A stretch of 25,040 nucleotides of DNA, taken from a virus (lineage: Duplodnaviria; Caudoviricetes). Under the pieces are notes generated by a model, which made no database searches, was not told the origin of the DNA, and saw only the letters and a program-made list of their open reading frames with translations. Below, in pieces: positions 300-25,040 of the stretch; the stretch's first letter is position 1, and the number at the start of each line of letters is the position of its first letter. Made by a program: the position numbers and the translations under genes. The stretch spans positions 1-25,040 of IMG/VR virus record IMGVR_UViG_3300042465_004193; one strand, written 5' to 3'.

Positions 300-548
300 C
301 TATAACAGCTTAACCCAAATGGGGGTTTTAGCCCCCATCCAAGTTCCACGTACATTACAATCAAAAAAATTTAAGGCTTTATCATACTCTATCCCCTGAC
401 TCATCAAAATCTCAATGCATTTATCTACAGAATAAACTAATCGCATTTCCTCCTCCTCTATGCCAATAACCGCATTGTCAAAACCATCAGCCTTGACAAA
501 CTCTTCATTTGGATAGGTATGTATTATTTTATTAAGAACCTGCTTCAT
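300..548 (-). CDS. conserved-type phage hypothetical protein (KADGFDNAVIG motif)
   Basis: ORF 300..575; likely start MKQVLNKII at 548 overlapping the groEL 3' end; ADGFD.A.IG / YS..K.I..L pattern resembles a common aquatic phage family (from memory). Confidence 0.7.
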   Translation of the reverse strand: MKQVLNKIIHTYPNEEFVKADGFDNAVIGIEEEEMRLVYSVDKCIEILMSQGIEYDKALNFFDCNVRGTWMGAKTPIWVKLL

Positions 549-2148
549 ACGTCCTTGACATCGTAATGATAGCATTCGTACTTAGTATAGTTATTGCAAC
601 TGAGACTGCATTCTGTAGTGCGCTTCTCGTTACCTTTAATGGGTCAATAACACCCATCGAAATTAAATCTCCCATCTTACCATCTTTCAGGTTATAACCC
701 CAACCCTCTTTTTTCTCACCGCTATAAATATCTTCAGAACTTAATCCTGCATTAGTTAATATTTGCTTTAGTGGTGACTCAATTGCAAGCTGAATAATTA
801 AACTCGCAATCTTATATTCGTCAGATGCATCCTTTGCTACAAACTCTGAGCAGTTAATCTCGTACAACGCCTTACCTGCACCCGCTAATATCCCCTCTTC
901 CAAGGCTGAACGTACCGCGCATACCGCGTCGTCTACTCTATCAAATAATTCCTTCTGCTCCAAGTCAGTGTTACCACCAACGTAGATTACACCAACACCC
1001 CCCGTAAGTGATGCAATTCTCTCTAAGATAAAGTCCTTGTCCGTCTTTCTCTTTGCCATTGCGTGAGCGTCCCACAATTGTGCTACACGCTCAGCAATTA
1101 ATGTCTCGTCCGCCTTTGCAGTTGACTTAACAAGTACCGTGCTGTCTCTACCAACAATTACTCTACTTGCGTGACCTAAATCAGCAAAACTGATATGGGA
1201 CAAATCATCTCCGGTTTTCTCGCTGAAGTACGTAGCTCCGACGCTAATAGCAATATCTTGCATCAGCTCGTGCTGCTTGTACCCAAAGTTCGGTGGTTGA
1301 ATTGTACATATCTTTAAGTTGTTCTTCATTACGTTAGCCGCAATAGTGTTAACCACATTGGTAGAGCACGGTGCAATGATTAATAATTTTTTACCCTCAG
1401 ATATAATTGGTTTTAATACGTTCTCAATCTGCAAGATGTTACTAATATCCACATCTGCTACCATTACCATCACGTCCTCGAATATACACTCGTCCTTCTT
1501 TTGGTTATTGATAAACAGCTGAGACGAGTAACCTCTCTCAATCTTTAATCCTTTAGTGGTTTCTGCGTAGGTGTCCGCAGTCTGCGACCTTTCGACGGTC
1601 ACGATACCATTCTTACCCACCTCTTTATATACCTCAGAGATAATTTTACCTATCTCCTTGTCGTTGTTTGCCGATATAGTTGCCACATCGGACAACATTG
1701 CGTTACTTACCTTCTTACTTTTTTTGACCAACTTGTCCACCACCTTAGTGGTTATGTCCGATAGCGCTCTTAATACTTCTGTTCTGTTGTGCCCTTCTTT
1801 AATTGAATCAAGACCGCCTAATACCAAAGCCTCGGTTAGCACAATTGCAGTGGTCGTACCGTCACCGGCACTCGTAGCAGTTCTGTCTGCCGCCTCTTTC
1901 ATAATCTTAACCGCAAGGTTTTCTACAGGGTCTAACAAGTCAATAGACTTAGCTACCGTTACCCCATCCTTTGTTACCGTAATACCGTGTGTGTGATTTG
2001 GTGATTCAATTAACACCGTGTTTCCACTTGGACCTAATGTGCTCTTGACAGCCTTCGCCATCAACTTAACACCATTAGCTAATTTTTCTCTACCCTGCTC
2101 GTCGAACTGTAAGTTCTTAGGAGAGTACCCTAAATTTTCTGTTTGCAT
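532..2148 (-). CDS. groEL: phage-encoded group I chaperonin GroEL (Cpn60)
   Basis: 538 aa; motifs STLGPSG, TKDGVTVAK, AGDGTTTA, GGVGVIYVG, RVDDAVCA, GVIDPLKVTRSALQNAVS. Confidence 0.97.
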   Translation of the reverse strand: MQTENLGYSPKNLQFDEQGREKLANGVKLMAKAVKSTLGPSGNTVLIESPNHTHGITVTKDGVTVAKSIDLLDPVENLAVKIMKEAADRTATSAGDGTTTAIVLTEALVLGGLDSIKEGHNRTEVLRALSDITTKVVDKLVKKSKKVSNAMLSDVATISANNDKEIGKIISEVYKEVGKNGIVTVERSQTADTYAETTKGLKIERGYSSQLFINNQKKDECIFEDVMVMVADVDISNILQIENVLKPIISEGKKLLIIAPCSTNVVNTIAANVMKNNLKICTIQPPNFGYKQHELMQDIAISVGATYFSEKTGDDLSHISFADLGHASRVIVGRDSTVLVKSTAKADETLIAERVAQLWDAHAMAKRKTDKDFILERIASLTGGVGVIYVGGNTDLEQKELFDRVDDAVCAVRSALEEGILAGAGKALYEINCSEFVAKDASDEYKIASLIIQLAIESPLKQILTNAGLSSEDIYSGEKKEGWGYNLKDGKMGDLISMGVIDPLKVTRSALQNAVSVAITILSTNAIITMSRTYEAGS

Positions 2149-2228: not shown

Positions 2229-2636
2229 ATGAATAATATCATTGCCACTTACCGCTATATACCTTATGGTACGAAAGTTAATGTAGTCGTTACCAATGAC
2301 ATCGCCTCGTCAATTTTACAATACGACTCAGACTACGACGAGTCGGTAGACTACAGCGGTTGGGTGGCATCCTTCGTAGAGGGTAAATTAAATACCTGCT
2401 ATATTATCCTCAAGCAAGAGGCGACCATTAGCGACATCATTCACGAGGTCACGCACCTTGTGCAGTACGTGCTAAAGTATCACAATGTAAACATCGCAGA
2501 CGAATTAGATGAGAATATGGCTTATGGTATATCCTTTTGGTCTGAGCTAATATTAGCCTCTGTGAGACCCGATACCCCATATCTAACAGATTGGGTTAGA
2601 GCGCAGGCTCAAATTGCTCAGAGCCCTTCAAATTAA
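2229..2636 (+). CDS. putative zincin-like metallopeptidase (HEXXH)
   Basis: IIHEVTHLVQ followed by a downstream acidic DENMAY segment; ATG at 2229 preferred over GTG at 2169. Confidence 0.7.
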   Translation: MNNIIATYRYIPYGTKVNVVVTNDIASSILQYDSDYDESVDYSGWVASFVEGKLNTCYIILKQEATISDIIHEVTHLVQYVLKYHNVNIADELDENMAYGISFWSELILASVRPDTPYLTDWVRAQAQIAQSPSN

Positions 2637-3183
2637 ATTTAAAGGCTGCTCCTACTCTCATTTGTCCCGTCACTAAATCATAACCAACAAAGTAGAAGTG
2701 CGGCTGATAAGCCGGGGTAAATACTCCGTCGACAGATAGACTCACTCCTTTTTTACCAAAGAGCACCGAACCTCCTACACCAATTGATGCCTGCTTCTTA
2801 TGGACCATATAATTGGTCTTAGTAATCTGAGCCTGCGTCATTTTAAGTGATGCCAATCTTGATTGAATAGCGTTCTCAGATATGCGCTCCGTTAAAAATA
2901 ATTTAGCTCCCGTAAACTCTATACTATCTTCGTAGGTCTTTGTAGCATAATAGTCTCCTACTACGTACGATGTATCCACCACCGTATTAATGATGGTATC
3001 ATTTTTAATTATGGTCTTAGGTACTAATTTAGTAATGTATTTGGTCTGCGCAGGTAGCTCAACGTACTGCGTGTCAATTTTTACAGTGTCTAATGTTAGA
3101 TTATTGGCACCATTGTGACAACCATTTCTAAGTAATGCAATAGCAAAAACTATTGCTAAAGCCCATCCAAGCGTGTTTTTCAT
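2596..3183 (-). CDS. secreted or membrane-anchored phage protein, possibly a lysis accessory (spanin-like)
   Basis: N-terminal hydrophobic helix followed by RNGC, a T/D/I-rich DT-repeat stalk and a C-terminal beta-rich region. Confidence 0.6.
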   Translation of the reverse strand: MKNTLGWALAIVFAIALLRNGCHNGANNLTLDTVKIDTQYVELPAQTKYITKLVPKTIIKNDTIINTVVDTSYVVGDYYATKTYEDSIEFTGAKLFLTERISENAIQSRLASLKMTQAQITKTNYMVHKKQASIGVGGSVLFGKKGVSLSVDGVFTPAYQPHFYFVGYDLVTGQMRVGAAFKFNLKGSEQFEPAL

Positions 3184-3185
3184 AT

Positions 3186-3370
3186 TTATGTCGTTATGTC
3201 GTTTTTTAATCTCCCTATATATATATATATATTTCCTCCTTTTATATATTTATTTTCTATTAGAAACTAACTTTAAAATTGACATTTTCGACATTCTATT
3301 AATAATCAATTAGTTAACTATCAATAATCGTCGTAAAATCTAACATCTTAATGTCGATATTCTAACATTG
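3186..3370. promoter_or_regulatory. origin-like element, copy A
   Basis: (TA)n at 3216-3232; TTAAAATTGACATTTTCGACATT at 3273; IHF-like AATCAATTAGTTA at 3304-3316; repeated GACAT/ATGTC boxes; homologous to 14130-14270. Confidence 0.55.
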
Positions 3371-3394
3371 TAATTACTTTGTTATTACTTTGAT

Positions 3395-3427
3395 AAAAAA
3401 AAGAGGAGCCTAACTAAAGACTCCCCT
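3395..3427 (-). terminator. Rho-independent terminator
   Basis: minus strand AGGGGAGTC-loop-GGCTCCTCT followed by a T run, downstream of the 3460..3603 ORF. Confidence 0.8.
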
Positions 3428-3459
3428 AAACCAAAACATATAACTATAACAAACAAATA

Positions 3460-3603
3460 CTATTTCATCAATTCTTGTTTCTTCAATTGGACTATGTTCT
3501 TAGCCTTAGCAGCCTTAGCAGCTAATATAGACTTACCCTTATCTCCTTGAAAATATTTCTTTACACCAAAGGCACTATCGCCTCTGTCCTTACCGCCCAT
3601 CAT
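3460..3603 (-). CDS. small basic hypothetical protein (47 aa, MMGGKDRGDSAFGVKKY...)
   Basis: not in the ORF track; TAATG overlap with the upstream gene; ends in TAG before the terminator. Confidence 0.6.
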   Translation of the reverse strand: MMGGKDRGDSAFGVKKYFQGDKGKSILAAKAAKAKNIVQLKKQELMK

Positions 3604-3830
3604 TACTTAATGAATTTTACGTACTCGGGACCCTCAGACATCTCAGACCTTCTGTTGCCCATAGCTACCGCTTCAGCCATCATCTCAATCTTACCTGCCT
3701 TCTTTAATTCTTTTCTTGCAATTGCAGCGGCAGTGATACCTGAGATACCTGTATTAGGTCTGTCGTTAATCAATCTACCGTTCTTTACCGTCAAACCACT
3801 TAGGTTTGCACTGTTTTTAAAATTATCCAT
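3603..3830 (-). CDS. small basic hypothetical protein (75 aa, MDNFKNSANLSG...)
   Basis: 3' part of ORF 3603..3965; ATG at 3830 lies just downstream of a TATCTTTG promoter element. Confidence 0.7.
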   Translation of the reverse strand: MDNFKNSANLSGLTVKNGRLINDRPNTGISGITAAAIARKELKKAGKIEMMAEAVAMGNRRSEMSEGPEYVKFIK

Positions 3831-3856
3831 ATGATATATAATAAGGTTTAATAATA

Positions 3857-3864
3857 CAAAGATA
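3857..3864 (-). promoter_or_regulatory. Bacteroidota-type -7 promoter element
   Basis: CAAAGATA equals TATCTTTG on the minus strand. Confidence 0.6.
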
Positions 3865-4098
3865 TAAAAAAATATTAGATGATAATAGTGTCGGGGCTGT
3901 ATAGCGGTTTGGCGAGCCGACCCCCGCGACGGAAACGGAATTTTTTTCGGCAGGGGGGGGTGCAATTCCTCCGCGCGCCTCCAAATTTTTGGCGTTTTTG
4001 TGTGGGTACCTTAGCACCTGAATGAATGCCCGCGCGCGATAAGATAAGCAACAAAGGCACCGCGCAATGTAGGTTAATCAATTCGCGACACGTCCGCG

Positions 4099-4118
4099 CA
4101 CCGCACCGCACCGCACCG
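4099..4118 (+). repeat. 5-bp tandem repeat (CACCG)4
   Basis: CACCGCACCGCACCGCACCG. Confidence 0.9.
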
Positions 4119-4198
4119 AAAAAATACAAATTGAATACAGGACGCAAAAACAAAAATAAAAAATAAAAAAAAGAAAATCGCTGAAAGCCTTTGCCCGC

Positions 4199-4214
4199 GT
4201 GTCTTTGAAGACAC
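4199..4214. repeat. 16-bp palindrome copy 1 GTGTCTTTGAAGACAC
   Basis: direct reading; one of six copies. Confidence 0.9.
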
Positions 4215-4356
4215 AAAGCAAATTAAAAAAGGCGCCTGAATAGAGGCGGTTCCGTCCCTCCCTCCGTAAACATTGTAAACCTGAAAAAAAACTTTGCACC
4301 TGAAACGCCTATAAACATTGACGTTTAAAAATAATTGTAAAAAAAAGTATAATATA

Positions 4357-4388
4357 TTTGCATATTAAATAGTATTGCACTATAATTG
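4357..4388 (+). promoter_or_regulatory. Bacteroidota-type early promoter
   Basis: TTTG (4357-4360), 20-bp spacer, TATAATTG (4381-4388), upstream of the first plus-strand gene. Confidence 0.6.
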
Positions 4389-4447
4389 CATACCCAATGC
4401 ACACAGCAAAGGGACAAAAAAAACGTAACTAACTAAAAATCAAACAA

Positions 4448-5092
4448 ATGACAAATTTATTAAACATTGAGGCTTCATTCCTCAACATTCCTGAGGTTAA
4501 ACAAGGTTTAAACCTATTAGAAATTAAAAGATTAAACGCCACACTATCAAACGGGCAAAAAAAGAAATTCGCGACCACGTTAACCCTTAGCGCTGTAGTT
4601 TTAAAGGCGTTCGAGTGGTATAGCAGTGACGCGGGTAAACAGCTAATGAGCAATGAGGGTATTTCGTGGACGGCGGAGGATTTCGCAAATAAGGTATTCG
4701 GGTGGCAAAAATCGTATTTCTATAAAGTAGTTAAGGCGGGCAAATTAGCGCCTGAGGTAGTGGATAATTTTAACGCGAAATGTGACGAAATTGAGGCGGG
4801 CGGTGACGAGCCTAATAGAACCTTAGAGGGTTTATTAAAATTCGCAAAGGCGGTGGACGAAAATACCAATGTAGGTGGAGAGAGTGACGGAGAGAGTGAC
4901 GGAGAGAGTGAGAGCGCGGAGGTGGAGGTGCGGGTGCCCACTATATTGACGTTCACATTTAAACCTGAGAACGACAAAAACGTAGCGGTGCGAATAGACG
5001 CGAACGGAGTAATAAAGACCACTAATAGCAACGACGAAATTTATAGCGCCTTGCAAGTATTAATGAACAAATTAGCTGAAAACCAAAATTAA
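4448..5092 (+). CDS. first early gene, putative HTH-type DNA-binding protein with an acidic linker
   Basis: 214 aa; WTAEDFANKVFGWQKSYFYKVVKAG resembles the HTH-like segment of DUF3102/ParB-type phage proteins; GESD repeats. Confidence 0.6.
   Translation: MTNLLNIEASFLNIPEVKQGLNLLEIKRLNATLSNGQKKKFATTLTLSAVVLKAFEWYSSDAGKQLMSNEGISWTAEDFANKVFGWQKSYFYKVVKAGKLAPEVVDNFNAKCDEIEAGGDEPNRTLEGLLKFAKAVDENTNVGGESDGESDGESESAEVEVRVPTILTFTFKPENDKNVAVRIDANGVIKTTNSNDEIYSALQVLMNKLAENQN
4877..4911 (+). repeat. 12-bp tandem repeat (GGAGAGAGTGAC), about 3 copies, encoding GESD
   Basis: direct reading. Confidence 0.9.
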
Positions 5093-5095
5093 TCA

Positions 5096-5111
5096 GTGTC
5101 TTTAAAGACAC
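5096..5111. repeat. 16-bp palindrome copy 2 GTGTCTTTAAAGACAC
   Basis: perfect palindrome 3 bp after a stop codon. Confidence 0.95.
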
Positions 5112-5130
5112 ATAAAACCCCCTAAAAAAT

Positions 5131-6060
5131 ATGAAAACAACACAAAAACAAATCGGCATTGAGTACACGTTAACGGGTGACAGCACCCGCGGTGAAATTA
5201 CGGGCTACCATCGTAAACCTGAGGCGCTAAAATTAAATAAGACGCCTTATAGAGTGGATATATCAGGTTTAAAAACTGCGGGCGTACGTCAAGCTATAAA
5301 AATTGACGGCGCGGTTTACGAGTCTAAATTTACGATAGGTATGGAGGTGGAAAAAAATAATTTGCATCGAGGCGCGGTGCGCGAATATGAATTGTTTTGC
5401 GGGTTTGAGCGCGACGGGTCGTGTGGGTATGAGGCGGTGACACATATACTGCCTTTGATACCTGAAAGCAAATGGCGTACAAAAATTTACGATATGATGC
5501 ACAAAGCGGAGAAAATCATCGATGACCGCTACAGCCCGTCAAGCAGTAATTGTGGTGGTCACATTACATTGGCGGTGGACGGAATGATGGGTGAGCAATT
5601 AAATTTTGAGGTGCGAAAATATTCGGGCATTGTGCTTGCAATGTTTAGAAATAGACTAAAAAACGTGTACTGCGGTGCCAATCGTCGAATGCAAGCAGGG
5701 TATATGAGCGAGTATAACAGCGCGCCCGCGGGACGTGGTACGTACGACCATAACGGGTGGCACTATAAATACCAAACAGCATTAGTTAAGGGTAATTTGC
5801 TCGAATTTAGATTGCCGAGCCGTTTCGAGTCGGTAAAGCAAATGATGCGTAGGTACGAATTAATGTATGAATTGGTAAACTTTGCGGTGAACGTGCAAGG
5901 GACGCAAAAAGCATTCTTTGCGAAAATACGCCCTATTATCCTATCAATGTATAACGGAGAAACGGAGAAAACCGACGAAATATTTAAATTGGCGGTGGAC
6001 TTTCAAAAATTTATTAACACGGGGGTGATTAGTGATGCAATAGCGCAGTACCTTAGGTAA
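5131..6060 (+). CDS. putative amidoligase (COOH-NH2 ligase, glutamine synthetase-like fold)
   Basis: motifs IGMEVE, ERDGS, GYEAVT, NCGGHI, HYKY, LEFRLP match the amidoligase-2 family pattern. Confidence 0.8.
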   Translation: MKTTQKQIGIEYTLTGDSTRGEITGYHRKPEALKLNKTPYRVDISGLKTAGVRQAIKIDGAVYESKFTIGMEVEKNNLHRGAVREYELFCGFERDGSCGYEAVTHILPLIPESKWRTKIYDMMHKAEKIIDDRYSPSSSNCGGHITLAVDGMMGEQLNFEVRKYSGIVLAMFRNRLKNVYCGANRRMQAGYMSEYNSAPAGRGTYDHNGWHYKYQTALVKGNLLEFRLPSRFESVKQMMRRYELMYELVNFAVNVQGTQKAFFAKIRPIILSMYNGETEKTDEIFKLAVDFQKFINTGVISDAIAQYLR

Positions 6061-6087
6061 GCGCTACGGGGGCGCTCAGGCGCTCCC

Positions 6088-6138
6088 GCTGTAGTGGAAT
6101 GAGTGTTCCACCTGATGAGTCTAAAAAGACGAAACGGC
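6088..6138 (+). ncRNA. type III hammerhead ribozyme (HH1)
   Basis: stem III GCUGU/ACGGC; cleavage triplet GUA (6091-6093); stem I GUGGAA/UUCCAC; core CUGAUGA (6112-6118); stem II GUC-UAAAAA-GAC; GAAA. Confidence 0.9.
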
Positions 6139-6161
6139 AAACCTTTAAACCAATAAACAAG

Positions 6162-6383
6162 ATGGACTTAACAAAATTTACAAAGGAAAAAATTACTGAC
6201 GAAAATTTAATAAACGCAATTACTTTTCAGGGTATTGACATTTGGGAAAGCGCCGACGGGAACCAATGGGTTACAGATTGGAACGGCAATTTAATATTGT
6301 GCAAAAACGAAGATTTGTGGTTAGGTGATGAGTGGGGAAGCACTGAAACGGAGATGTTTATTTTAAAACCTTTAAACCAATAA
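6162..6383 (+). CDS. hypothetical acidic early protein (MDLTKFTKE...)
   Basis: ATG at 6162 after an A-rich leader; the longer 6099 start runs through the ribozyme. Confidence 0.7.
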   Translation: MDLTKFTKEKITDENLINAITFQGIDIWESADGNQWVTDWNGNLILCKNEDLWLGDEWGSTETEMFILKPLNQ

Positions 6384-6386
6384 ACT

Positions 6387-6551
6387 ATGAAAAAACTAAA
6401 GATGGCTAAGTTGTGGGCAGTGGACTGCTTTTGCTTAGGTAAGTACGTGCAGATGTACACGTTCAAAAAGTGTTCAGATGCAGTAAAGATGGCGCTAACG
6501 ATTGACGGGGCTAAGGTAGAGCGTAGAGAGTGTTTAACGGACAAGTATTAA
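6387..6551 (+). CDS. small hypothetical protein (54 aa, MKKLKMAKLWAVDCFC...)
   Basis: fills the gap between neighbours; preceded by the same 20-bp leader as 6162. Confidence 0.6.
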   Translation: MKKLKMAKLWAVDCFCLGKYVQMYTFKKCSDAVKMALTIDGAKVERRECLTDKY

Positions 6552-6556
6552 AGCAT

Positions 6557-6781
6557 ATGGACAAGTTCAGAGTGTGCGGGATAACCTCAGAGGGATACCC
6601 GCAAGTAGAGGTGAGCGATTTATCGTACGATGAGGCGGTAAAGGAGATGAATAGGCGAAAGAGTTTCTTTCCTGATGTGGATTTCTATATTGATGTGGCT
6701 CCTGATGAGGCACCAATGCGCAGAATAAATACAAGGGAGGTGGCTGATGGTTGGGAGGATTTCTTTCCTGATTCACACTGA
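6557..6781 (+). CDS. hypothetical early protein (MDKFRVCG...)
   Basis: ATG at 6557 within ORF 6530..6781. Confidence 0.65.
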   Translation: MDKFRVCGITSEGYPQVEVSDLSYDEAVKEMNRRKSFFPDVDFYIDVAPDEAPMRRINTREVADGWEDFFPDSH

Positions 6782-8662: not shown

Positions 8663-9757
8663 ATGTGCGTAATTATCGTAAAGCAAAACAAAAACAAGAT
8701 GCCAATTGATGTGGCTAAAACGTCATCAAAAATTAATCCTCACGGATTGGGAGTGATATGGTTGGATACCTACGAGGTATCGCACCATACCTCTAAAGAG
8801 TACAAGATTCTCGACACCGACAGACCATTCATTGCGCATTTCAGATACGCTACAATTGGTGCAGTAGGTTTAGATAACACACACCCATTTAAGTGTGGTA
8901 AAAACAAAGCAGAGTGGCTAATGATGAACGGGACGATTCGTGGGTTGGGTGACACCAAGAAGTGTGACTCAAAAGTTCTTGCCGAGCAGATTGGCTCCAA
9001 GCCACGTCACACGTGGAGGGAAGTATTGGAGCAGTACGATAGCAGATTCGTAACTATCAACACACGTAACCGCACGTTTCAGATGTACAACAAAGATATG
9101 TGGCACAAGAAAGACGGCATATGGTACAGCAAAGATAACGTGTTGCAGGATAATTTAGTGGCTGTGTACGGCACGCTCAAGAAAGGCGAGAGTAATTACT
9201 ATTCATACCTTACCGACTCAAAGTTAGTCGGTAAGGGTGAGACCAAAGACAAGTACCCACTAATAATCAAGGGATTGCCTTACCTGATAGATGACATTGG
9301 AGTGGGACATAATGTAGAGGTGGACGTGTTCAAAGTTACTGATGCTACGCTTGCCCGATTAGATGCGTTGGAGGGACACCCACATTGGTACCAAAGAAAG
9401 TTGGTGCCTATCAAGACCGCTAAAGGTAACGAGTTGATGTGTTGGGTATACTTTAATATAGAAGAGAAAGTTAACGGGCAGAAGATGCACAAGACATTCA
9501 AGCGGGAGCCCGCACCATTAAAAAAGATTGAGAATAATTATTGGAGTTCTAAATTCCATAAGCCATACGAGTTGCAGTGGGACGAGAGGCAGAGTATAAT
9601 GCAAGACGAGGAGCAACAAGAGTACAATATAGATGAAGAGACACCAATGTGTGTAGAATGTTATAACGATTTGAAGTTCGATGGGTTCGCAAACTATCAT
9701 TGCGGGGGTTGTGGTAGTTGGTTCACGGAGACTGAAATCGTCAGGTTTAGACCATAA
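8663..9757 (+). CDS. class II glutamine amidotransferase / gamma-glutamylcyclotransferase (AIG2-like) fusion with a C-terminal Zn ribbon
   Basis: N-terminal Met-Cys, NPHGLG, AHFRYATIG, HPF, MNG (Ntn GATase); VAVYGTLKKG and LDALEG (GGCT); CVEC...CGGC. Confidence 0.88.
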   Translation: MCVIIVKQNKNKMPIDVAKTSSKINPHGLGVIWLDTYEVSHHTSKEYKILDTDRPFIAHFRYATIGAVGLDNTHPFKCGKNKAEWLMMNGTIRGLGDTKKCDSKVLAEQIGSKPRHTWREVLEQYDSRFVTINTRNRTFQMYNKDMWHKKDGIWYSKDNVLQDNLVAVYGTLKKGESNYYSYLTDSKLVGKGETKDKYPLIIKGLPYLIDDIGVGHNVEVDVFKVTDATLARLDALEGHPHWYQRKLVPIKTAKGNELMCWVYFNIEEKVNGQKMHKTFKREPAPLKKIENNYWSSKFHKPYELQWDERQSIMQDEEQQEYNIDEETPMCVECYNDLKFDGFANYHCGGCGSWFTETEIVRFRP

Positions 9758-11772: not shown

Positions 11773-12075
11773 ATGAAAAAAGATATATTTAATGAGTGTG
11801 TGGAGAAGGTAGTTCAGACATTTCGTATAGAGAGAAAACACCTATTTAAAAAATCAAAAGTTCAGGAGTATGTAGATGCAAGACATTTGTTATACTATCT
11901 ATGTTCAGTAAGACCAATGCCTTTGGCAACAATCAATAACTATATGAACCAAAATGGCTATGAGACAAGTTGGTCAACAATATATAGGGGCGTATCTTCA
12001 TTTGAAAACAAGATGAAACAAGATGCAGACTACAAAAGATTAGTAAGAGACATTCAAAATTCAATCACAATTTAA
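11773..12075 (+). CDS. DnaA domain IV-like HTH protein
   Basis: KSKVQEYVDARHLLYYLC...LATI...STIYRG parallels the DnaA C-terminal R...AR.IAMYL...DH.TV pattern. Confidence 0.7.
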   Translation: MKKDIFNECVEKVVQTFRIERKHLFKKSKVQEYVDARHLLYYLCSVRPMPLATINNYMNQNGYETSWSTIYRGVSSFENKMKQDADYKRLVRDIQNSITI

Positions 12076-12086
12076 TCCAAAACAAA

Positions 12087-12704
12087 ATGGCAACAAACAC
12101 AACAGCAGTTTTGAGCACCAACGAAGTGTTCAAAAAATTATCAGCAATCAGTATCAAGGACAAGATTGAGCGCAAGGGCAACCTTGACTACTTATCTTGG
12201 GCTAACGCTTGGTCTTTATTAAAGACCCACTATCCAAACGCTCAGCGTAAGATTTACGAGCACGAGCACACGGGCTTAAATTATTTCACTGATGGAACCA
12301 CAGCCTACGTTAAGGTTGGTATCATAGTAGATAACATCGAGCACATCGACTACTTACCCGTGATGAATTTTCGTAACGAGGCAATTCCAATTGGGAAGTT
12401 AACGTCGATGGACGTAAACAAAACAATTCAGCGCTCGACGGCTAAGGCTATCGCTATGCACGGATTGGGTTTAAGTTTATGGACAGGCGAGGACGTGCCT
12501 GAATTAACGACGGCTCCAGTGGCTCCGCCAGTAACAAGTGAGTTGGAAGAGTTGAAGAAAGATTCAGCAAGTTGGGCTAAAGTTTGTTCGTATATCGAAG
12601 CAAATAAATCACTTGGTATTGAGGCAATTGGAAAACAATTGAGTAGAAAATACAAAATGAGTCCCGCAGTTAAGAAAGAGATTGCTAATTTAGTAAATTC
12701 TTAA
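12087..12704 (+). CDS. single-strand annealing protein (Sak3/DUF1071-like)
   Basis: LDYLSWANAW, LPVMNFRN, VNKTIQR..AKAIAMHGLGLSLWTGED. Confidence 0.85.
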   Translation: MATNTTAVLSTNEVFKKLSAISIKDKIERKGNLDYLSWANAWSLLKTHYPNAQRKIYEHEHTGLNYFTDGTTAYVKVGIIVDNIEHIDYLPVMNFRNEAIPIGKLTSMDVNKTIQRSTAKAIAMHGLGLSLWTGEDVPELTTAPVAPPVTSELEELKKDSASWAKVCSYIEANKSLGIEAIGKQLSRKYKMSPAVKKEIANLVNS

Positions 12705-13435
12705 TGATGGACATCATCGAACAATTGCGAGATGACAATAACTACTACGGAGTATTAGGCAAGCAGTACCTATCCAATTCGGATATAGGTACTCTGCTTA
12801 ATAATCCTCAGAGTTATGGTAAGTCGAGACCTGATAGTAAAAATTTATTGGAGGGTAGGTATTTTCATCAGTTGCTAATAGAGCCTGAGAAAGCGCAAGT
12901 GATTCCCTTTGTAGACGTGACGACAAGGACGACGAAAGAGTACAAGAATTACTGCGAGGAGAATAACTTAGAAATGTGTATGCTTAAAAAAGAGAAGGAG
13001 GACATCGAGAGATTAGTGAGCGTGATGAAGCGTAACATTACATTCTATGATGAGATTTATAGAGATGGTAACTTGTTTGAGACTCCCGCAATCACGGAGA
13101 TTGCAGGGTTGAAGTGGAAGGGTAAGGCGGATATTTTAACTAACGATTCTATTATTGACCTAAAGACTACGGCAGATATTCAGAAGTTTAAATATTCTGC
13201 GAGGTCTTATAATTACGATTCGCAGTGCTACATATACCAAACATTATTTGGAAAGCCATTGGTGTTCTATGTGGTCGATAAGGCAACGGCTCAGCTTGGT
13301 ATCTTTAGACCGACTGAGGAGTTCGTACGAGGCGGAGAGGCTAAAGTAATTAGGGCTGTAGAGGTATACCAAAAGTATTATGGTGCAAACCCTACGGACG
13401 ACATTGCAAATCATTACATCGAGGACACGCTATAG
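12704..13435 (+). CDS. PD-(D/E)XK exonuclease (RecE / exonuclease VIII-like, DUF3799)
   Basis: LSNSDI, G..FH..L.EP, KGKADIL, IIDLKTT, Y..Q..IY. Confidence 0.85.
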   Translation: MMDIIEQLRDDNNYYGVLGKQYLSNSDIGTLLNNPQSYGKSRPDSKNLLEGRYFHQLLIEPEKAQVIPFVDVTTRTTKEYKNYCEENNLEMCMLKKEKEDIERLVSVMKRNITFYDEIYRDGNLFETPAITEIAGLKWKGKADILTNDSIIDLKTTADIQKFKYSARSYNYDSQCYIYQTLFGKPLVFYVVDKATAQLGIFRPTEEFVRGGEAKVIRAVEVYQKYYGANPTDDIANHYIEDTL

Positions 13436-19682: not shown

Positions 19683-20207
19683 ATGGAAAAGATTTTAGAT
19701 GTAAATGTAGATTTAGAGATAGTAACAAAAATTATTAGAGATAAATTTAATGTAGAAATTTTTGATAAGAAAAGAAATAAAGAAATTGTAGAGGGTAGAT
19801 TGATTTGCGCTAAGTTGCTTCATTCAGCAGGCTATACCTATGCCTCTATTGGTAAAGCAATGAAGAGAGACCACAGCTCAATTATATATTATGTAAAGAC
19901 TTTAGATAATTTAGTTATACAACCAAATGAGTTGAGGTATAAATACCACCAATGCAAGGATATATATTTTAAAGAGAGTAATGACTTATTAGATAAAATA
20001 AATAGAACACATTACGCAGACGAAGTCCTTTTGCTAAGAAAGCAGTTGCATAACTTATCAAACAACGTGCACAGATTGTCATCATTTTACGATAAGTACA
20101 AAAGACTTGAAGATATTGTATTGTTGGTAAACGAAAGAACTGAGTTTGGTAAAGAAGATGAAGTAAGAAAAAGAATAATGAGAATGTTCAATACTATAGA
20201 AAAATGA
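19683..20207 (+). CDS. DnaA domain IV-like HTH protein with a C-terminal coiled region
   Basis: KKRNKEIVEGR...YTYASIGKAMKRDHSSIIY. Confidence 0.8.
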   Translation: MEKILDVNVDLEIVTKIIRDKFNVEIFDKKRNKEIVEGRLICAKLLHSAGYTYASIGKAMKRDHSSIIYYVKTLDNLVIQPNELRYKYHQCKDIYFKESNDLLDKINRTHYADEVLLLRKQLHNLSNNVHRLSSFYDKYKRLEDIVLLVNERTEFGKEDEVRKRIMRMFNTIEK

Positions 20208-20406: not shown

Positions 20407-20809
20407 AACAGATGAGGATAAAATAAGAGAACTTAAATCCGTAACAACATTTGTAAATATTTTTGGTGGTTCATTCAAAAGACTTGATGCTAATGACGTG
20501 AACTTTAAGATATTCGATAAGGATAAAAACTTAATTGCGTATGTTGAGGTTATACCAAGATTACGCTCAATGAGAATGGCTTACCCATTAATTGTTCCAG
20601 TAAAGAAAATGATTAAGCTGATTGATAAGCGACTAAACCCAACACTTATATGGTGTTGTGAGGATGGTATTATTTATGGTAGGATTGAGCATCTTAACGG
20701 AACTATAAGTTTTGATGGGCGCACCCCAAGTGCAGGTACGCCCAATAATTCAGAGTTGATGGCTTACTTTGATAAGCAGAAGTCTTTAAAGTATATACGC
20801 TTTACCTAA
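20390..20809 (+). CDS. hypothetical protein, possibly a degenerate PD-(D/E)XK fold
   Basis: E..D..RE...DVNF...AYVEV pattern lacking the canonical D and K residues. Confidence 0.55.
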   Translation: MMTTFKTDEDKIRELKSVTTFVNIFGGSFKRLDANDVNFKIFDKDKNLIAYVEVIPRLRSMRMAYPLIVPVKKMIKLIDKRLNPTLIWCCEDGIIYGRIEHLNGTISFDGRTPSAGTPNNSELMAYFDKQKSLKYIRFT

Positions 20810-23800
20810 GAACCAAATCTTTTAGTTTTACCCTTACCGCTTGCTCCAAACCTTTGAGTTTTCTTTGTTCCGCTTGCCCCAAATCTTTTTACGCTTCCGT
20901 CAGAGTTTCTACCTGTATAATTCATCTTCTCGTCCTTCATCTGTTGAACTTTCTTTCTAAGAAGACTCTCTACCTCTTTTTCTTCCTTGTGACTCTCATA
21001 CCAATCAGACCCCTCACCAAAATTTTGTTCCCACAAATCTTTATTGTATCTTTTTAGGTCTGACTCGCTGTCGTACTCCTCACCCGTATCAGGGTCTACC
21101 AATAACTTTTTCTTTGCTTGCTTTTCTTGAGCGTTCTCTTGCTTAATTGCTTTTTTCTCTTCGCTATCAGCATCTACCTCATCAATCTTTTCTCGTGCCT
21201 GTTTAATGATGGCTTCATCATTAGATTCCTCGATGATACTTTTAAGTGCGTTAATTTTTTCTTGCTTATTAGACTCTCTCTCCTCTTTATTTTCTTTAGC
21301 CTGAGCTTTCTCAGCAGTCGACTTTGTATTCTTCTTAGCATACTTAACAGCATTCTTAACCACCGTGTTTACCTCCGAAGGAGCAAGACCCATATTTGAT
21401 AACATTGCAAATGGCAATAAATATGTTATTTGTTCTTGTCTTTCACTTGAGATGGTGTGTTTCTTATTAAAGTCATCAGTGTACTCTCCTGTTGCCGCTA
21501 ACTTAGTCATATCATAAAGCTCCGTAGCTCTTTGCGCTGATATACCAAACGTCCCCAAGTTAGAGGTCCAATCAGATTTTCTTACACCAAAAGTAGATAC
21601 AGGTAAACCTGTTCCTTCTTCTAATAAAGTGGAAACTGTTTCTACTGCTGCTTGAATTGGTTTATCTACAATAGGAAGCGGAGATATAATATCCGTAATC
21701 GTACCAGTCCACTGACCCTTGATTATATCATTCATACGCTTATCTTTTTCTTCCTCGTCCTCATCTTCTCCCATTCCCATCTTAGTTAATGTACCTAATG
21801 TAATAGCGATACCTGCACTAATCATTTTAAATGTAGCTAACTCGACTCCAAAACCTGCAACAGATTTTGCTGCAATTTTTTTATCTTCTGCAGTTGCAGT
21901 CTTGTCGGATAATGTTGCAAGGTCCGCACCTAATCTTGCCGATTGATTCATTCTAAAACTTGCAAATGGCATTAACATTTTCACAAGAACTTGATTAGCC
22001 GATTCCTTACTTGCAAATAATTTACCTGATAAATCTACATCAGATATATTCTGCTGTCTGTCAACCATACGCTGAGCGTAGTTTGCCGCCTTCTCATTTA
22101 ACTCGTGAGTATTATAATCAATCCCCTTTGTATCTACTCCTTGCTCCTTTAAAGACTTTTCGTAATAAGTCATCCAAGATGCTCTTGCTATAAATACATC
22201 AGGGTTAACTAAAAATAATTCTAAGTATTCTTGATTTACTTTTTCAATAGTTTTTATTGTCTTATCAAAATTACCTTTAGATGCAATATCAATTAATTTA
22301 TTAAGAGATTCAATTTGGGCTTGAGATTCAACACCTCTATTTGCAATTCCGTAACCCGACTCGCTTATAAACTTTTGTTTAGCCGCATCAAATGCACCCA
22401 TCACATCTAAACTACCCGCATTAATTAATGTGTTTGTACCAACGGATACCGTCTGCTTGATAGGTTGCGTAACACCACCTAAAGCCTGACCTACACCAAA
22501 AGCTGCAAGTCTATTTAATCTTCTAACAGCCTTAGAGAATTGGTCGTCTGTATAAGGGTTTTTATTTCTAATGTTCCTTATATATAATTGTATCCTATCT
22601 TTTAATATTTTAGCATCGTCAGCTGTAGGTACAATCTTTTCAAAATCTTCTGAGTTTTCAAATGCCTCTATTTGTCTGATAGGTGCTGCAGTTTTTATAT
22701 CAACAAGAGCATCGTACATTGCATTTGAATTGTTCTTATCAAAAGATAGCTCAATATAAGATGTAGGCTTACCATTCTTTTTATTGGTAGGTAAAGTTTC
22801 AGGCTTAGTTGCCTTCATTAATACGCCTGTTTCTTTTTTATAGATTGTACCATTATTATTATGAAATGCAGATTCATCGTTTGCTAAATCAACTTCGCCT
22901 GTATCAGAACTTATCTTTGCAAATCTATCAGGGCTACTATAATTAATATCTTTTTCTAATATTTTATTATATATATTCTCAGATACGTCAGATAACTCTT
23001 GGTATATATTAGCCCACTCGTTCATCCAAAAATCAATAGCCTCTAAGTTAGTCTTGTCGGTTTTGTTTTTTATTTCTTGGATATTATTAGTATCTGCTAA
23101 AATCTTATCGTATGCCTTTTGATATAACTTACCCTTTTGTTTTTCTACGTCGTTACCTTTAGATAAAACTTCAATAGATTCTTCAAGTAAATTCTTTCTT
23201 CTGTTGAACTCACTTTTCATTTCCTGCTCAGTACCAATAACATTCCTCATCATAAATGAAGACATATTTCTTTCTACGTTATTATATTCGGTATTAAACG
23301 CCTCACCATTAGCTTTTTTGTTAAAGAACTGCTTTACGTAGTTATTAACAATAATATTTGATTTAGTTTGAGCATTAGATTTACCATTAATAAGATTGGT
23401 AACACCCATCATATCCTGTACCTCACCCGACCTATTAAACCCTTTGAACATTTTTTCAAATAGGATAGGGAGCGTTGTAGTTTGTTCTGCTAAGAATCTA
23501 CCAAATCCTTTTGAAAAATACTTCATTAAAGGTTGAGCCTTAATACCTGATTTCGCTAATTTACGCGCGTTTAATCTACCAGTATAGTCAGAAACAACCG
23601 TCTGCATTTTTGCAGTAGATTGGTTTTGAATAAAGTTAGCAAGAGCATCTACAGCTTGAAGAGATTCTTTAGGAGTAAGAATACTTAGGTCCATATCCAT
23701 AAATTGCTTTATTAAAGTTTTTTGGTTTTTAGTCAGCTCAACTTTTTCTCCTGTATAGAATGCATCGTAATTTGTCTTTAATATCTCATTTATTACTCCT

Positions 23801-25040
23801 GAGTAAGCCTTAAATGCTTTATCTAAAAGACTTCTTACAATTGACTCGTTATACTTTGTTACTTTAGCTTCGCCTTCGCCTTCTAATAAAATCCTTAATT
23901 GTTCAGGAGTCATATCTGATGCATCAATATCCATCAACTCCTGTATCTCTGCTCTTTGCTCTTCTAATATTTTTTTATCTTGAACTCTTAACGTATCACT
24001 AATATATCTTGTGGCATCTTGAATACTTACAACGTCAGAGAATTTAACTTTCTCTCCTCTTAAAGTAGAACCCTTTACAGAACTCTTAATTTGAGAAGCC
24101 ATCTCATTATACGCATAAATATCCTCCACCATTGATGGGTCAATATTTATAAACTCTTCCGCTAACTTTCTAAAATCTGCATTCTTATCTTTATTCTTAG
24201 ATAGTTTTTTAATATCTGCTTTAAGACCACTTGCTGTTTTTAACTGAGCACCGTACTCTGCATCTGCAAATACCTTACCCATATAGTCAACAAATCTTGA
24301 TACAGATGTAGGGCTTAACATATTTACTTTAGCAAACTTGCTTATAATAAAACCTCCCTGTCTTGCTGTAATATTACCCGACTTCACAAGCGCTTTAATC
24401 TCTTGAGCCATTAATATAGCTGCTTTTTTTGTAGCTGCTACTGCTGTCTTTGCTCCCTCTTGTAGGTCTTTAAGTCGCTTAATATAAAGCTGCTTCTCGG
24501 TTAGCGTAAACTTCTTAACATCTTTTAGTGTACCAAATAACTTCGCTACGCTTGGCGCAGACTTTAGGTTGATACCAAATTTAGTCTTAATATCGCGGAT
24601 AATTTTTTCGCGTTGTACGTCTGTGGCATTCTCGTAAACCTTAGACCCCATCACGTAACTAATTACGTTCTCAGTTATCTTTGCTTGGTCTACATTACGT
24701 TTCTTAGACTTCTCTATGATGCCCTCAACTTCACCCATCATCCTGTCAAATCCTTGAGATAACTTCTCAGATATTTTTACTCTTGCAGATGCAGGAGTCT
24801 CGGGAGACATAGCACTTTTAATTTTAGATGCAGGTACACCTTCACCTTCTAAGAATAATTTAATGGCTTCCTCAGAAAATCCTTGAGCTCTTGCTTCTTT
24901 AACAACCTTAGTAATTGGGTCTGTTAATTGAGCCCTTGATATAGGTGATTGTTTTTCTTTAATATTGCGAGCTTGTTCTTCTAATATAGGATTGTCACTA
25001 AAAAAATCGTGTCCAATATATTCTAATTTACCTAAATCTT
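20806..25040 (-). CDS. very large helical phage protein, 5'-truncated by the window; probable internal virion/ejection protein
   Basis: frame has no stop from 24810 to the window end, so more than 1400 aa; alpha-helical, K/E-rich; opposite strand to the replication genes. Confidence 0.75.
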   Translation of the reverse strand, partial: DLGKLEYIGHDFFSDNPILEEQARNIKEKQSPISRAQLTDPITKVVKEARAQGFSEEAIKLFLEGEGVPASKIKSAMSPETPASARVKISEKLSQGFDRMMGEVEGIIEKSKKRNVDQAKITENVISYVMGSKVYENATDVQREKIIRDIKTKFGINLKSAPSVAKLFGTLKDVKKFTLTEKQLYIKRLKDLQEGAKTAVAATKKAAILMAQEIKALVKSGNITARQGGFIISKFAKVNMLSPTSVSRFVDYMGKVFADAEYGAQLKTASGLKADIKKLSKNKDKNADFRKLAEEFINIDPSMVEDIYAYNEMASQIKSSVKGSTLRGEKVKFSDVVSIQDATRYISDTLRVQDKKILEEQRAEIQELMDIDASDMTPEQLRILLEGEGEAKVTKYNESIVRSLLDKAFKAYSGVINEILKTNYDAFYTGEKVELTKNQKTLIKQFMDMDLSILTPKESLQAVDALANFIQNQSTAKMQTVVSDYTGRLNARKLAKSGIKAQPLMKYFSKGFGRFLAEQTTTLPILFEKMFKGFNRSGEVQDMMGVTNLINGKSNAQTKSNIIVNNYVKQFFNKKANGEAFNTEYNNVERNMSSFMMRNVIGTEQEMKSEFNRRKNLLEESIEVLSKGNDVEKQKGKLYQKAYDKILADTNNIQEIKNKTDKTNLEAIDFWMNEWANIYQELSDVSENIYNKILEKDINYSSPDRFAKISSDTGEVDLANDESAFHNNNGTIYKKETGVLMKATKPETLPTNKKNGKPTSYIELSFDKNNSNAMYDALVDIKTAAPIRQIEAFENSEDFEKIVPTADDAKILKDRIQLYIRNIRNKNPYTDDQFSKAVRRLNRLAAFGVGQALGGVTQPIKQTVSVGTNTLINAGSLDVMGAFDAAKQKFISESGYGIANRGVESQAQIESLNKLIDIASKGNFDKTIKTIEKVNQEYLELFLVNPDVFIARASWMTYYEKSLKEQGVDTKGIDYNTHELNEKAANYAQRMVDRQQNISDVDLSGKLFASKESANQVLVKMLMPFASFRMNQSARLGADLATLSDKTATAEDKKIAAKSVAGFGVELATFKMISAGIAITLGTLTKMGMGEDEDEEEKDKRMNDIIKGQWTGTITDIISPLPIVDKPIQAAVETVSTLLEEGTGLPVSTFGVRKSDWTSNLGTFGISAQRATELYDMTKLAATGEYTDDFNKKHTISSERQEQITYLLPFAMLSNMGLAPSEVNTVVKNAVKYAKKNTKSTAEKAQAKENKEERESNKQEKINALKSIIEESNDEAIIKQAREKIDEVDADSEEKKAIKQENAQEKQAKKKLLVDPDTGEEYDSESDLKRYNKDLWEQNFGEGSDWYESHKEEKEVESLLRKKVQQMKDEKMNYTGRNSDGSVKRFGASGTKKTQRFGASGKGKTKRFGS

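Follow-up and report, generated by a model that had tools for sequence, protein, structure and literature searches.

The stretch of DNA examined for the current report (25,040 nucleotides of a tailed virus, Duplodnaviria; Caudoviricetes; positions 1 to 25,040 of IMG/VR record IMGVR_UViG_3300042465_004193; hereafter the window) carries a cluster of the hexamer GCGGTG around a divergent gene switch. We consider it probable (about 0.6) that this cluster arises mostly as a by-product of a shift toward codons rich in GC and CG steps in the first two genes, ORF214 and ORF309, inside the likely left end, with a likely short repeat, of the genome of a Bacteroidota podovirus. The switch carries a conserved cis element and a C-rich array; the codon shift is found in the genes beyond them and decays with distance, array and genes share words in both orientations, and alleles in this region turn over fast. 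The end region appears to be a recombination-prone compositional regime, for which a recombination mechanism is proposed below. An initial annotation had read the same cluster as a possible Chi-like armour on a terminal repeat of ~2 kb.

The phage and its relatives

On sequence grounds, the window is a 25-kb part of a lake podovirus of the ~60-kb type that is related to phages of Flavobacteriia. It encodes GroEL, the annealing protein Sak, an ExoVIII-like nuclease, a primase-helicase, an SNF2 helicase and a VRR-NUC protein, and the phage turns up in metagenome runs, 22 of 24 of which are labelled as lake water. Among annotated genomes, MW202828 (60,850 bp; primase 80%, ORF309 47%) comes closest, and through it alone the core portal and structural genes of the Pachyviridae, Pervagoviridae and Elemovirus, lying outside the window, were compared. 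We infer a Bacteroidota host, because the cultured matches of the MW202828 terminase and portal are only phages of Flavobacterium, Cellulophaga, Tenacibaculum and Maribacter (86 records). The Flavobacterium elemo phages (Elemovirus) are likewise ~60 kb in size and carry GroEL/ES, with a large terminase subunit (TerL) and portal 46.8% and 46.3% identical to those of MW202828, but they have ERF in place of Sak. No homologue of ORF309 was found among cultured phages, nor a relative of it among 41 candidates scanned in bacterial genomes. Primase relatives were also considered as a clue to the host and set aside: they lie on four contigs of metagenome-assembled genomes (MAGs), one labelled Flavobacteriaceae and three with unrelated labels, and are likely to be mis-binned phage DNA. 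For comparison within the family, 160 loci were fetched with an ORF309 alignment, and 154 genes were dereplicated to 98.

The GCGGTG cluster and codon use

The two genes in question are:

4448..5092, plus strand: ORF214, the first early gene, with no family (ORF and family scans)
5131..6060, plus strand: ORF309, a conserved early gene, putative amidoligase (Amidoligase_2-like; 933 homologues; Atlas lead PF12224)

Counted on both strands of the window, GCGGTG occurs 15 times against 3.96 expected, a total that was equalled in none of 100 dinucleotide shuffles. All 14 positions listed in the initial annotation were recovered on recount, and one copy that it had not noticed lies on the minus strand at 717, inside groEL. 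The ten plus-strand copies all fall within ORF214 (4800, 4850 and 4985) and ORF309 (5189, 5374, 5434, 5572, 5672, 5884 and 5992) and, as had been noticed, use two reading frames, seven being in-frame Ala-Val GCG-GTG pairs and three being one base off. The minus-strand copies near the switch (CACCGC at 4058, 4099, 4104 and 4109) are all within a non-coding array, where three of the four belong to a single tandem (GCACC)x4 at 4098-4117. The reported flip in the polarity of the shorter word near 4200-4240 is equally clear, with 9 CCGC and 1 GCGG at 3900-4200 against 22 GCGG and 3 CCGC at 4240-6000, and GC skew changes sign at the same place, which is the site where transcription changes strand. 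The polarity of GCGGTG flips because the array is C-rich on the plus strand while the coding strand is G-rich.

The codon use of the two genes departs strongly from that of the rest of the window. GCG specifies 25 of their 39 Ala residues (64%) compared with 55 of 360 elsewhere (15%), GTG specifies 18 of 34 Val residues compared with 76 of 372, and the dinucleotide CG occurs 113 times where 55 are expected. If the two genes had the codon use of the rest of the window, 0.96 plus-strand copies of GCGGTG would be expected rather than the 10 observed; their own codon use predicts 4.1. A junction-preserving null explains GCGG fully (21 observed, 20.4 expected) and leaves GCGGTG at 10 against 5.1 (nominal p 0.002), and correction for the choice of the best hexamer brings the family-wise p to 0.47 with this null (1500 shuffles) and to 0.19 with an own-codon shuffle. 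The initial annotation had allowed that correction for Ala-Val codon usage might abolish the enrichment; it does so for GCGG and only partly for GCGGTG.

The shift extends beyond one codon pair. The observed/expected ratio (O/E) of GC and CG steps is highest just inside the end, at 1.43 and 1.73 in the window, 1.14-1.20 in a 50-locus family set, 1.58 in MW202828 and 1.59 and 1.67 in the Tenacibaculum phage Gundel, and TA steps are at their minimum at this position across the family. Near the end, the avoidance of CGCG, GCGC, CCGC and CTAG (and of AATT and ACGT) is relaxed, and that of GATC, CCGG and TATA is deeper. The window as a whole has no CATG, CTAG, GATC or GGCC and hardly any CCGG or CCAG/CTGG; the avoidance of GATC and of the non-palindromic CCAG/CTGG is family-wide.

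Anatomy of the divergent switch

Related loci keep the same order of components: minus-strand genes, an element of ~165 bp, a low-complexity array, a 16-bp palindrome, a promoter, ORF214, usually a second palindrome, and ORF309. In the window, the components between the diverging genes are:

3842..4006, plus strand: conserved terminus-like cis element at the divergent gene switch (alignment, nhmmer)
4002..4198, plus strand: non-coding low-complexity array, C-rich on the plus strand, with phage-specific words (sequence and family comparison)
4199..4214, no strand assigned: first copy of the 16-bp palindrome GTGTCYTNNARGACAC (6 copies in the window against 0.01 expected)
4324..4386, plus strand: early promoter-like region with TATAAT matches (consensus matches only)

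The element consists of an AT-rich lead-in, AGTG...GG, a T-tract, a G-tract, ~27 nt and a further T-tract. An nhmmer profile of it detects the window at E 7.6e-35 and finds matches in 70 of the 73 dereplicated loci with enough flank, a proportion that is partly circular, as the profile was built from 50 of the searched sequences. MW202828 is matched at E 1.8e-6 and elemoA at E 0.8 only, although the T-tract/G-tract/T-tract at the switch of the elemo phages resembles that of the window by eye; the profile has no match in Gundel or Panino. The element is likely to be a signal for terminase or for end processing. A pile-up of contig ends at the element was considered as a mark of the terminus and is uninformative, short contigs dominating the 81 of 154 loci that are left-truncated.

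The arrays of the relatives keep a length of 100-175 nt in 57 of 71 cases, a GC content of 58% and an excess of C over G (66 of 71), while their words differ: 41 different forms occur as the top 5-mer of the 71 arrays, and only four arrays have CACCGC in at least two copies. From the start of the element to the end of the first palindrome there are 328 bp in the window and a median of 263 among relatives.

Further copies of GTGTCYTNNARGACAC lie at 5096, 6782, 9767, 13438 and 18987. Related loci usually have several, often with one ~33 nt upstream of the start of ORF309, and MW202828 has the variant GTGTCGTTAACGACAC. The palindrome is likely to be a family-wide operator or a (hairpin) promoter element. 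Two DnaA C-terminal-like proteins (11773-12075 and 19683-20207), both near or below the cut-off, are candidate binders of it. In the promoter-like region, TATATTTG at 4353-4360 fits TAnnTTTG, which we take to be the -7 box of Bacteroidota.

Words and turnover across the family

Among 93 loci, GCGGTG is densest in the ORF309 bin (1.03/kb) and falls to 0.02-0.16/kb at distances of at least 2 kb upstream and at least 4 kb downstream. A within-gene shuffle of 98 ORF309 homologues places both GCGG and GCGGTG outside the top 25 words. GCGGTG is missing from the first genes of 19 of 43 phages and reaches five or more copies in 5 of the 43.

What the phages share is a relationship between each array and the genes beside it. 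Since the loci are related, the p-values of the array/gene word statistics overstate independence. The first genes of a phage are enriched in words of its own array in either orientation (pooled O/E 1.60 reverse and 2.24 same), the reverse orientation exceeding the same orientation in 13 of 41 phages. Compared with the first genes of other phages, the log2 difference is 0.67 (reverse) and 0.69 (same); it decays with distance to 0.37/0.45 and then to 0.20/0.41, and across the switch it is 0.10/0.07. Phage by phage, the dinucleotides of the array track the near-minus-far shift of the genes, with rho 0.72 for GC and 0.53 for CG (n=43).

Individual sites appear to be transient. GCGGTG sites are gained and lost among close relatives, and in comparisons with three of these third positions within the motif show no more conservation than the rest (13/17 vs 341/431, 10/14 vs 184/252 and 12/18 vs 245/379). 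Four-fold divergence between the window and its relative L001 is 40% in ORF214 and 21% in ORF309 and 0% in 13 genes at 6.9-14 kb, positions 2596-6060 forming a mosaic block that is centred on the terminus (8-40%); divergence is highest at 0-2 kb in three of five informative pairs. In seven of 60 loci (L032, L044, L058, L062, L066, L071 and L079) no more than two CCGC/GCGG occur in all (11-21 kb), which suggests hosts that cut CCGC. The ORF309 homologue of L033 has the reversed polarity, with 15 CCGC and 3 GCGG on its coding strand.

The likely genome end and its predicted repeat

One terminus of the genome is likely to lie near 3.9 kb, given the conserved element, the position of the direct terminal repeat (DTR) of Gundel and a step in sequencing depth. 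The corresponding feature is:

3886..4250, no strand assigned: predicted short DTR (~2x contig depth in runs X4, X5 and X6; position in Gundel; edges inferred)

Its left edge would lie at ~3886-3900 and its right edge, which is uncertain, at 4220-4350, for a length of ~0.3-0.45 kb. Depth is available as one figure per contig in seven runs (X1-X7) with co-occurring strains, and the evidence that it provides is indicative only, because the depth of a contig does not equal its copy number and the strains are mixed. Three of the seven runs have ~2x depth over ~3.9-4.25 kb; X7 is unclear, and X1-X3 fail to resolve this interval. X5 has 38.4 at 3942-4217 against 22.5 at 5338-6700, X6 has 65.5 at 4008-4217 against 36 at 3681-3884 and 31.7 at 5374-6700, and X4 rises from 35.1 at 3681-3898 to 51.2 at 3938 and 69.8 at 4007 and returns to 32.9 at 4225-4258. 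The ORF309 region (5084-5990) is not doubled in X4 (25.8 and 26.4 against 23.4) and is at baseline in X5 and X6; X3 is flat throughout (9.1-10.3), with no doubling at 5.1-6.0 kb.

Gundel (Pachyviridae) is described as having a DTR of 322 bp, as predicted by PhageTerm (PMC8776804). Its repeat coincides exactly with the divergent switch that precedes the early genes, low-complexity DNA coming next, and the predicted repeat of the window has the same position; the two phages share a terminase/portal lineage by way of MW202828 (TerL 31%), and in both the O/E of GC/CG steps has its maximum just inside the end. They differ in that the Gundel array is GT-rich and that the terminase and portal genes are not within the 25-kb window. 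The start of the Gundel repeat resembles the window's element, a likeness that stands by eye only because the nhmmer profile does not confirm it.

The well-known podovirus T7 has short heptamer repeat arrays beside its terminal repeats, and its non-coding microrepeats beside or within a short terminal repeat are comparable to those described here. The T7 unit is conserved among relatives, whereas the family of the window conserves the length and C-skew of the array and not its unit.

A short DTR is given fairly good odds here; packaging of the pac type seems unlikely, and a long DTR somewhat more so. Of the ~2.2-kb repeat at 3.9-6.1 kb that the initial annotation envisaged, the terminus near 3.9 kb is thus likely to stand, but the repeat appears to be much shorter, in line with the depth of X3-X6.

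Is GCGGTG a Chi sequence?

The proposal that GCGGTG is the Chi of the host AddAB enzyme, selected near the genome ends, has several attractions. Polarity within the window is clean, the words of the arrays are phage-specific and in that sense host-like, and some Bacteroidota genomes carry GCGGTG ~4 times as often as its reverse. The Chi of B. subtilis, AGCGG, contains GCGG. Oriented and terminally clustered Chi sites are described for phages LLS, MD8 and P1 (PMC12315714; bioRxiv 2021.07.08.451572), and B. fragilis has AddAB, the Chi of Bacteroides being given as unknown in 2010 (PMC2887965). Neither a Bacteroidota Chi nor such an end gradient was reported in the literature searched, which covered few subscription papers.

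The geometry is less favourable. Under a short DTR, the ten plus-strand copies, which had been thought to face the right end of the repeat, sit 0.9-2.1 kb inside the left end; they are likely to be outside the repeat because the repeat is short, and they would be inactive for entry from the left end because Chi works only when approached from its 3' side (bioRxiv 2021.07.08.451572). With a short repeat, protection of both ends would require an active strand that reads CACCGC/CCGC; an active strand reading GCGG(TG) would protect only the left end.

Nor does the behaviour of the word across the family resemble that of a Chi. The polarity of the window gives way to enrichment in both orientations, no single word was found to be common to the phages of related hosts and kept by selection, the sites are not specially conserved, and codon use largely explains the cluster; the many array words and the phages without GCGGTG in their first genes argue in the same direction. 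LLS, MD8 and P1 are like the window in that a short G-rich word with apparent polarity clusters near a genome end, but theirs is described as a host word, proven for E. coli and proposed for Pseudomonas, that occurs in a single orientation and is not explained by codon use. Phages of the LLS type are described as having no Rec module and a Chi density that runs against local GC, and lambdoids with a Rec module of their own as mostly lacking Chi (PMC12315714); in the window, GCGGTG goes with local GC and the phage has its own module, whose Sak was found in 46 of 49 relatives and whose exonuclease was found in all 49:

12087..12704, plus strand: Sak single-strand annealing protein, phage recombinase (PF06378, E 4e-33)
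12704..13435, plus strand: Exonuclease VIII-like PD-(D/E)XK nuclease (phrog_412, E 1.5e-25; PF12684)

Bacteroidota genomes were also searched for the polarity that a Chi would have. From 151 genomes of the phylum of a Flavobacteriaceae MAG, we took two (G097 and G057) of the four with the highest ratio of GCGGTG to its reverse, a ratio that holds no skew information and served only to pick favourable genomes; neither is a known host. Strands were assigned, imperfectly, by local GC skew over 600 kb (G097) and 360 kb (G057), and stretches with |skew| <= 0.02 (10 of 40 and 2 of 20) were dropped. Leading-strand polarity of GCGGTG was 65% (58% expected) in G097 and 63% (55% expected) in G057, compared with reported values for Chi of 75.5% in E. 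coli and 89.7% in S. aureus (bioRxiv 2021.07.08.451572). The word ranked 82nd of 3949 and 464th of 3521 in over-representation, and the C-rich reading, CACCGC, was lagging-biased in both genomes. Neither genome lends the proposal support. Overall, we regard a role of GCGGTG as Chi armour as quite unlikely.

Other interpretations of the cluster

Several observations weigh against regarding the cluster as a compositional by-product beside a short repeat. GCGGTG is the top hexamer of the window and stays nominally high even under the strictest null, and in the ORF309 homologues, where its density peaks family-wide, it ranks fourth among hexamers (67 vs 21). Words of a phage's own array keep an O/E of 1.17 and 1.28 under the junction null, beyond composition alone. 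The compositional shift is found only inside the left end and not inside the right end, and synonymous changes are not all GC-ward, with AAA (79% vs 49%) and CAA (88% vs 59%) rising as well. In X1, a contig covering 3752-13755 has a depth of 62.8 against 54.4 to its left, which exceeds the effect of a 330-bp repeat; X2 has 6.4 at 4584-5997, the other pieces listed for it having 3.3-5.7, and X7 reaches 8.5 at 4775-5310, so that these three runs would fit a longer redundancy.

Because AAA and CAA also go up in the near-end genes, plain GC-biased conversion is insufficient and was ruled out as the sole cause. Their rise, together with the in-frame Ala-Val sites and an early-to-late gradient that is genome-wide, might instead reflect translational adaptation, in which early genes use host-preferred codons (GCG, GTG, AAA and CAA) and the array is an unrelated product of slippage. 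The non-coding array, however, undergoes the same shift phage by phage and shares words with the genes in both orientations, which leaves this interpretation doubtful, to about the same degree as Chi.

The residual enrichment might reflect orientation-independent selection for the sites of a protein that binds DNA (the small terminase, a phage protein of DnaA-IV-like type or a host factor) within the 2-5 kb that enter first. Enrichment of both orientations, its decay with distance from the array and the two DnaA C-terminal-like candidates noted above would be consistent with this possibility, but the words differ among close relatives in which the element and palindrome are conserved, and the sites turn over freely. 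We consider such selection unlikely, if marginally less so than Chi or translational adaptation.

Finally, a long terminal redundancy (a 2-kb repeat, or pac/headful packaging) would double the first kilobases and might allow restriction sites such as CGCG, GCGC and CCGC to be tolerated there. The relaxed avoidance near the end would fit, as would the X1 contig, 15% deeper than its left neighbour, and the hints from X2 and X7. The absence of doubling at 5084-5990, the deeper avoidance of GATC, CCGG and TATA and the 322-bp repeat of Gundel speak against it, and as an explanation of the cluster it has the least credit of those considered. Lagging-strand primase sites were rejected by argument, as the C-rich strand would be the wrong template to the right of the switch.

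For the interpretation that we favour, a compositional by-product inside a recombining genome end, the following mechanism is proposed. Terminase would cut at or near the element to leave a short repeat, and the phage ExoVIII-like nuclease and Sak would resect and anneal the ends, with the GC-rich and strand-asymmetric array as a hairpin-poor annealing core of the repeat. Slippage would generate the microrepeats of the array, and frequent exchange initiated at the ends would hold the array and the first genes in a single block of common GC/CG-rich composition. The restriction-site avoidance of each phage, a result of its restriction history, would determine the permitted words, and protein coding would favour the G-rich orientation on the plus strand, giving the flip in polarity.

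Other features of the window

Assignment of ORF309 as a putative Amidoligase_2-like amidoligase follows an Atlas lead of 0.97, PF12224 being carried by 12% of the members of one cluster; there was no Pfam hit and no PDB sequence hit, and the structure model has a pLDDT of 65. Together with a fusion of glutamine amidotransferase and gamma-glutamyl cyclotransferase at 8663-9757, it is likely to form a predicted peptide-modification module among the early genes. Directly after ORF309 lies one further feature:

6086..6140, plus strand: hammerhead ribozyme-like RNA (type III; 39.4 bits, E 4.8e-6)

Its score is below the gathering score of 48.5 for Hammerhead_3 (RF00008), but the match has full model length and an intact core. 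It overlaps a GC hairpin, and a similar CTGATGAG...GAAAC core lies upstream of ORF214 in the related locus L005; an Rfam scan of seven relatives at the gathering score found no hammerhead. The phage-encoded GroEL (532-2148, minus strand) is near the predicted right end, and a 1334-aa ORF without family at 20806-24810 (minus strand) is probably the distal portion of a very large virion protein comparable to the 3859-aa ORF of MW202828.

Implications

There is a slim chance that each phage writes a host-specific word (Chi-like, or another end-sensing motif that is orientation-independent) into its terminal array and first genes. If so, the end-processing motif of the host could be read from the terminal 150 bp, which would also be a barcode for host prediction and would provide a first handle on the Chi sequences of Bacteroidota. 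The search for Chi in general calls for caution, as a codon shift combined with strand skew can make a polar G-rich word beside a transcription switch. For this widespread but uncultured group of lake and marine podoviruses, the likely genome end has been located from sequence alone, and a compositional gradient, which also exists in a cultured relative whose end has been predicted, is anchored at it, with a zone of allele exchange at the same place.

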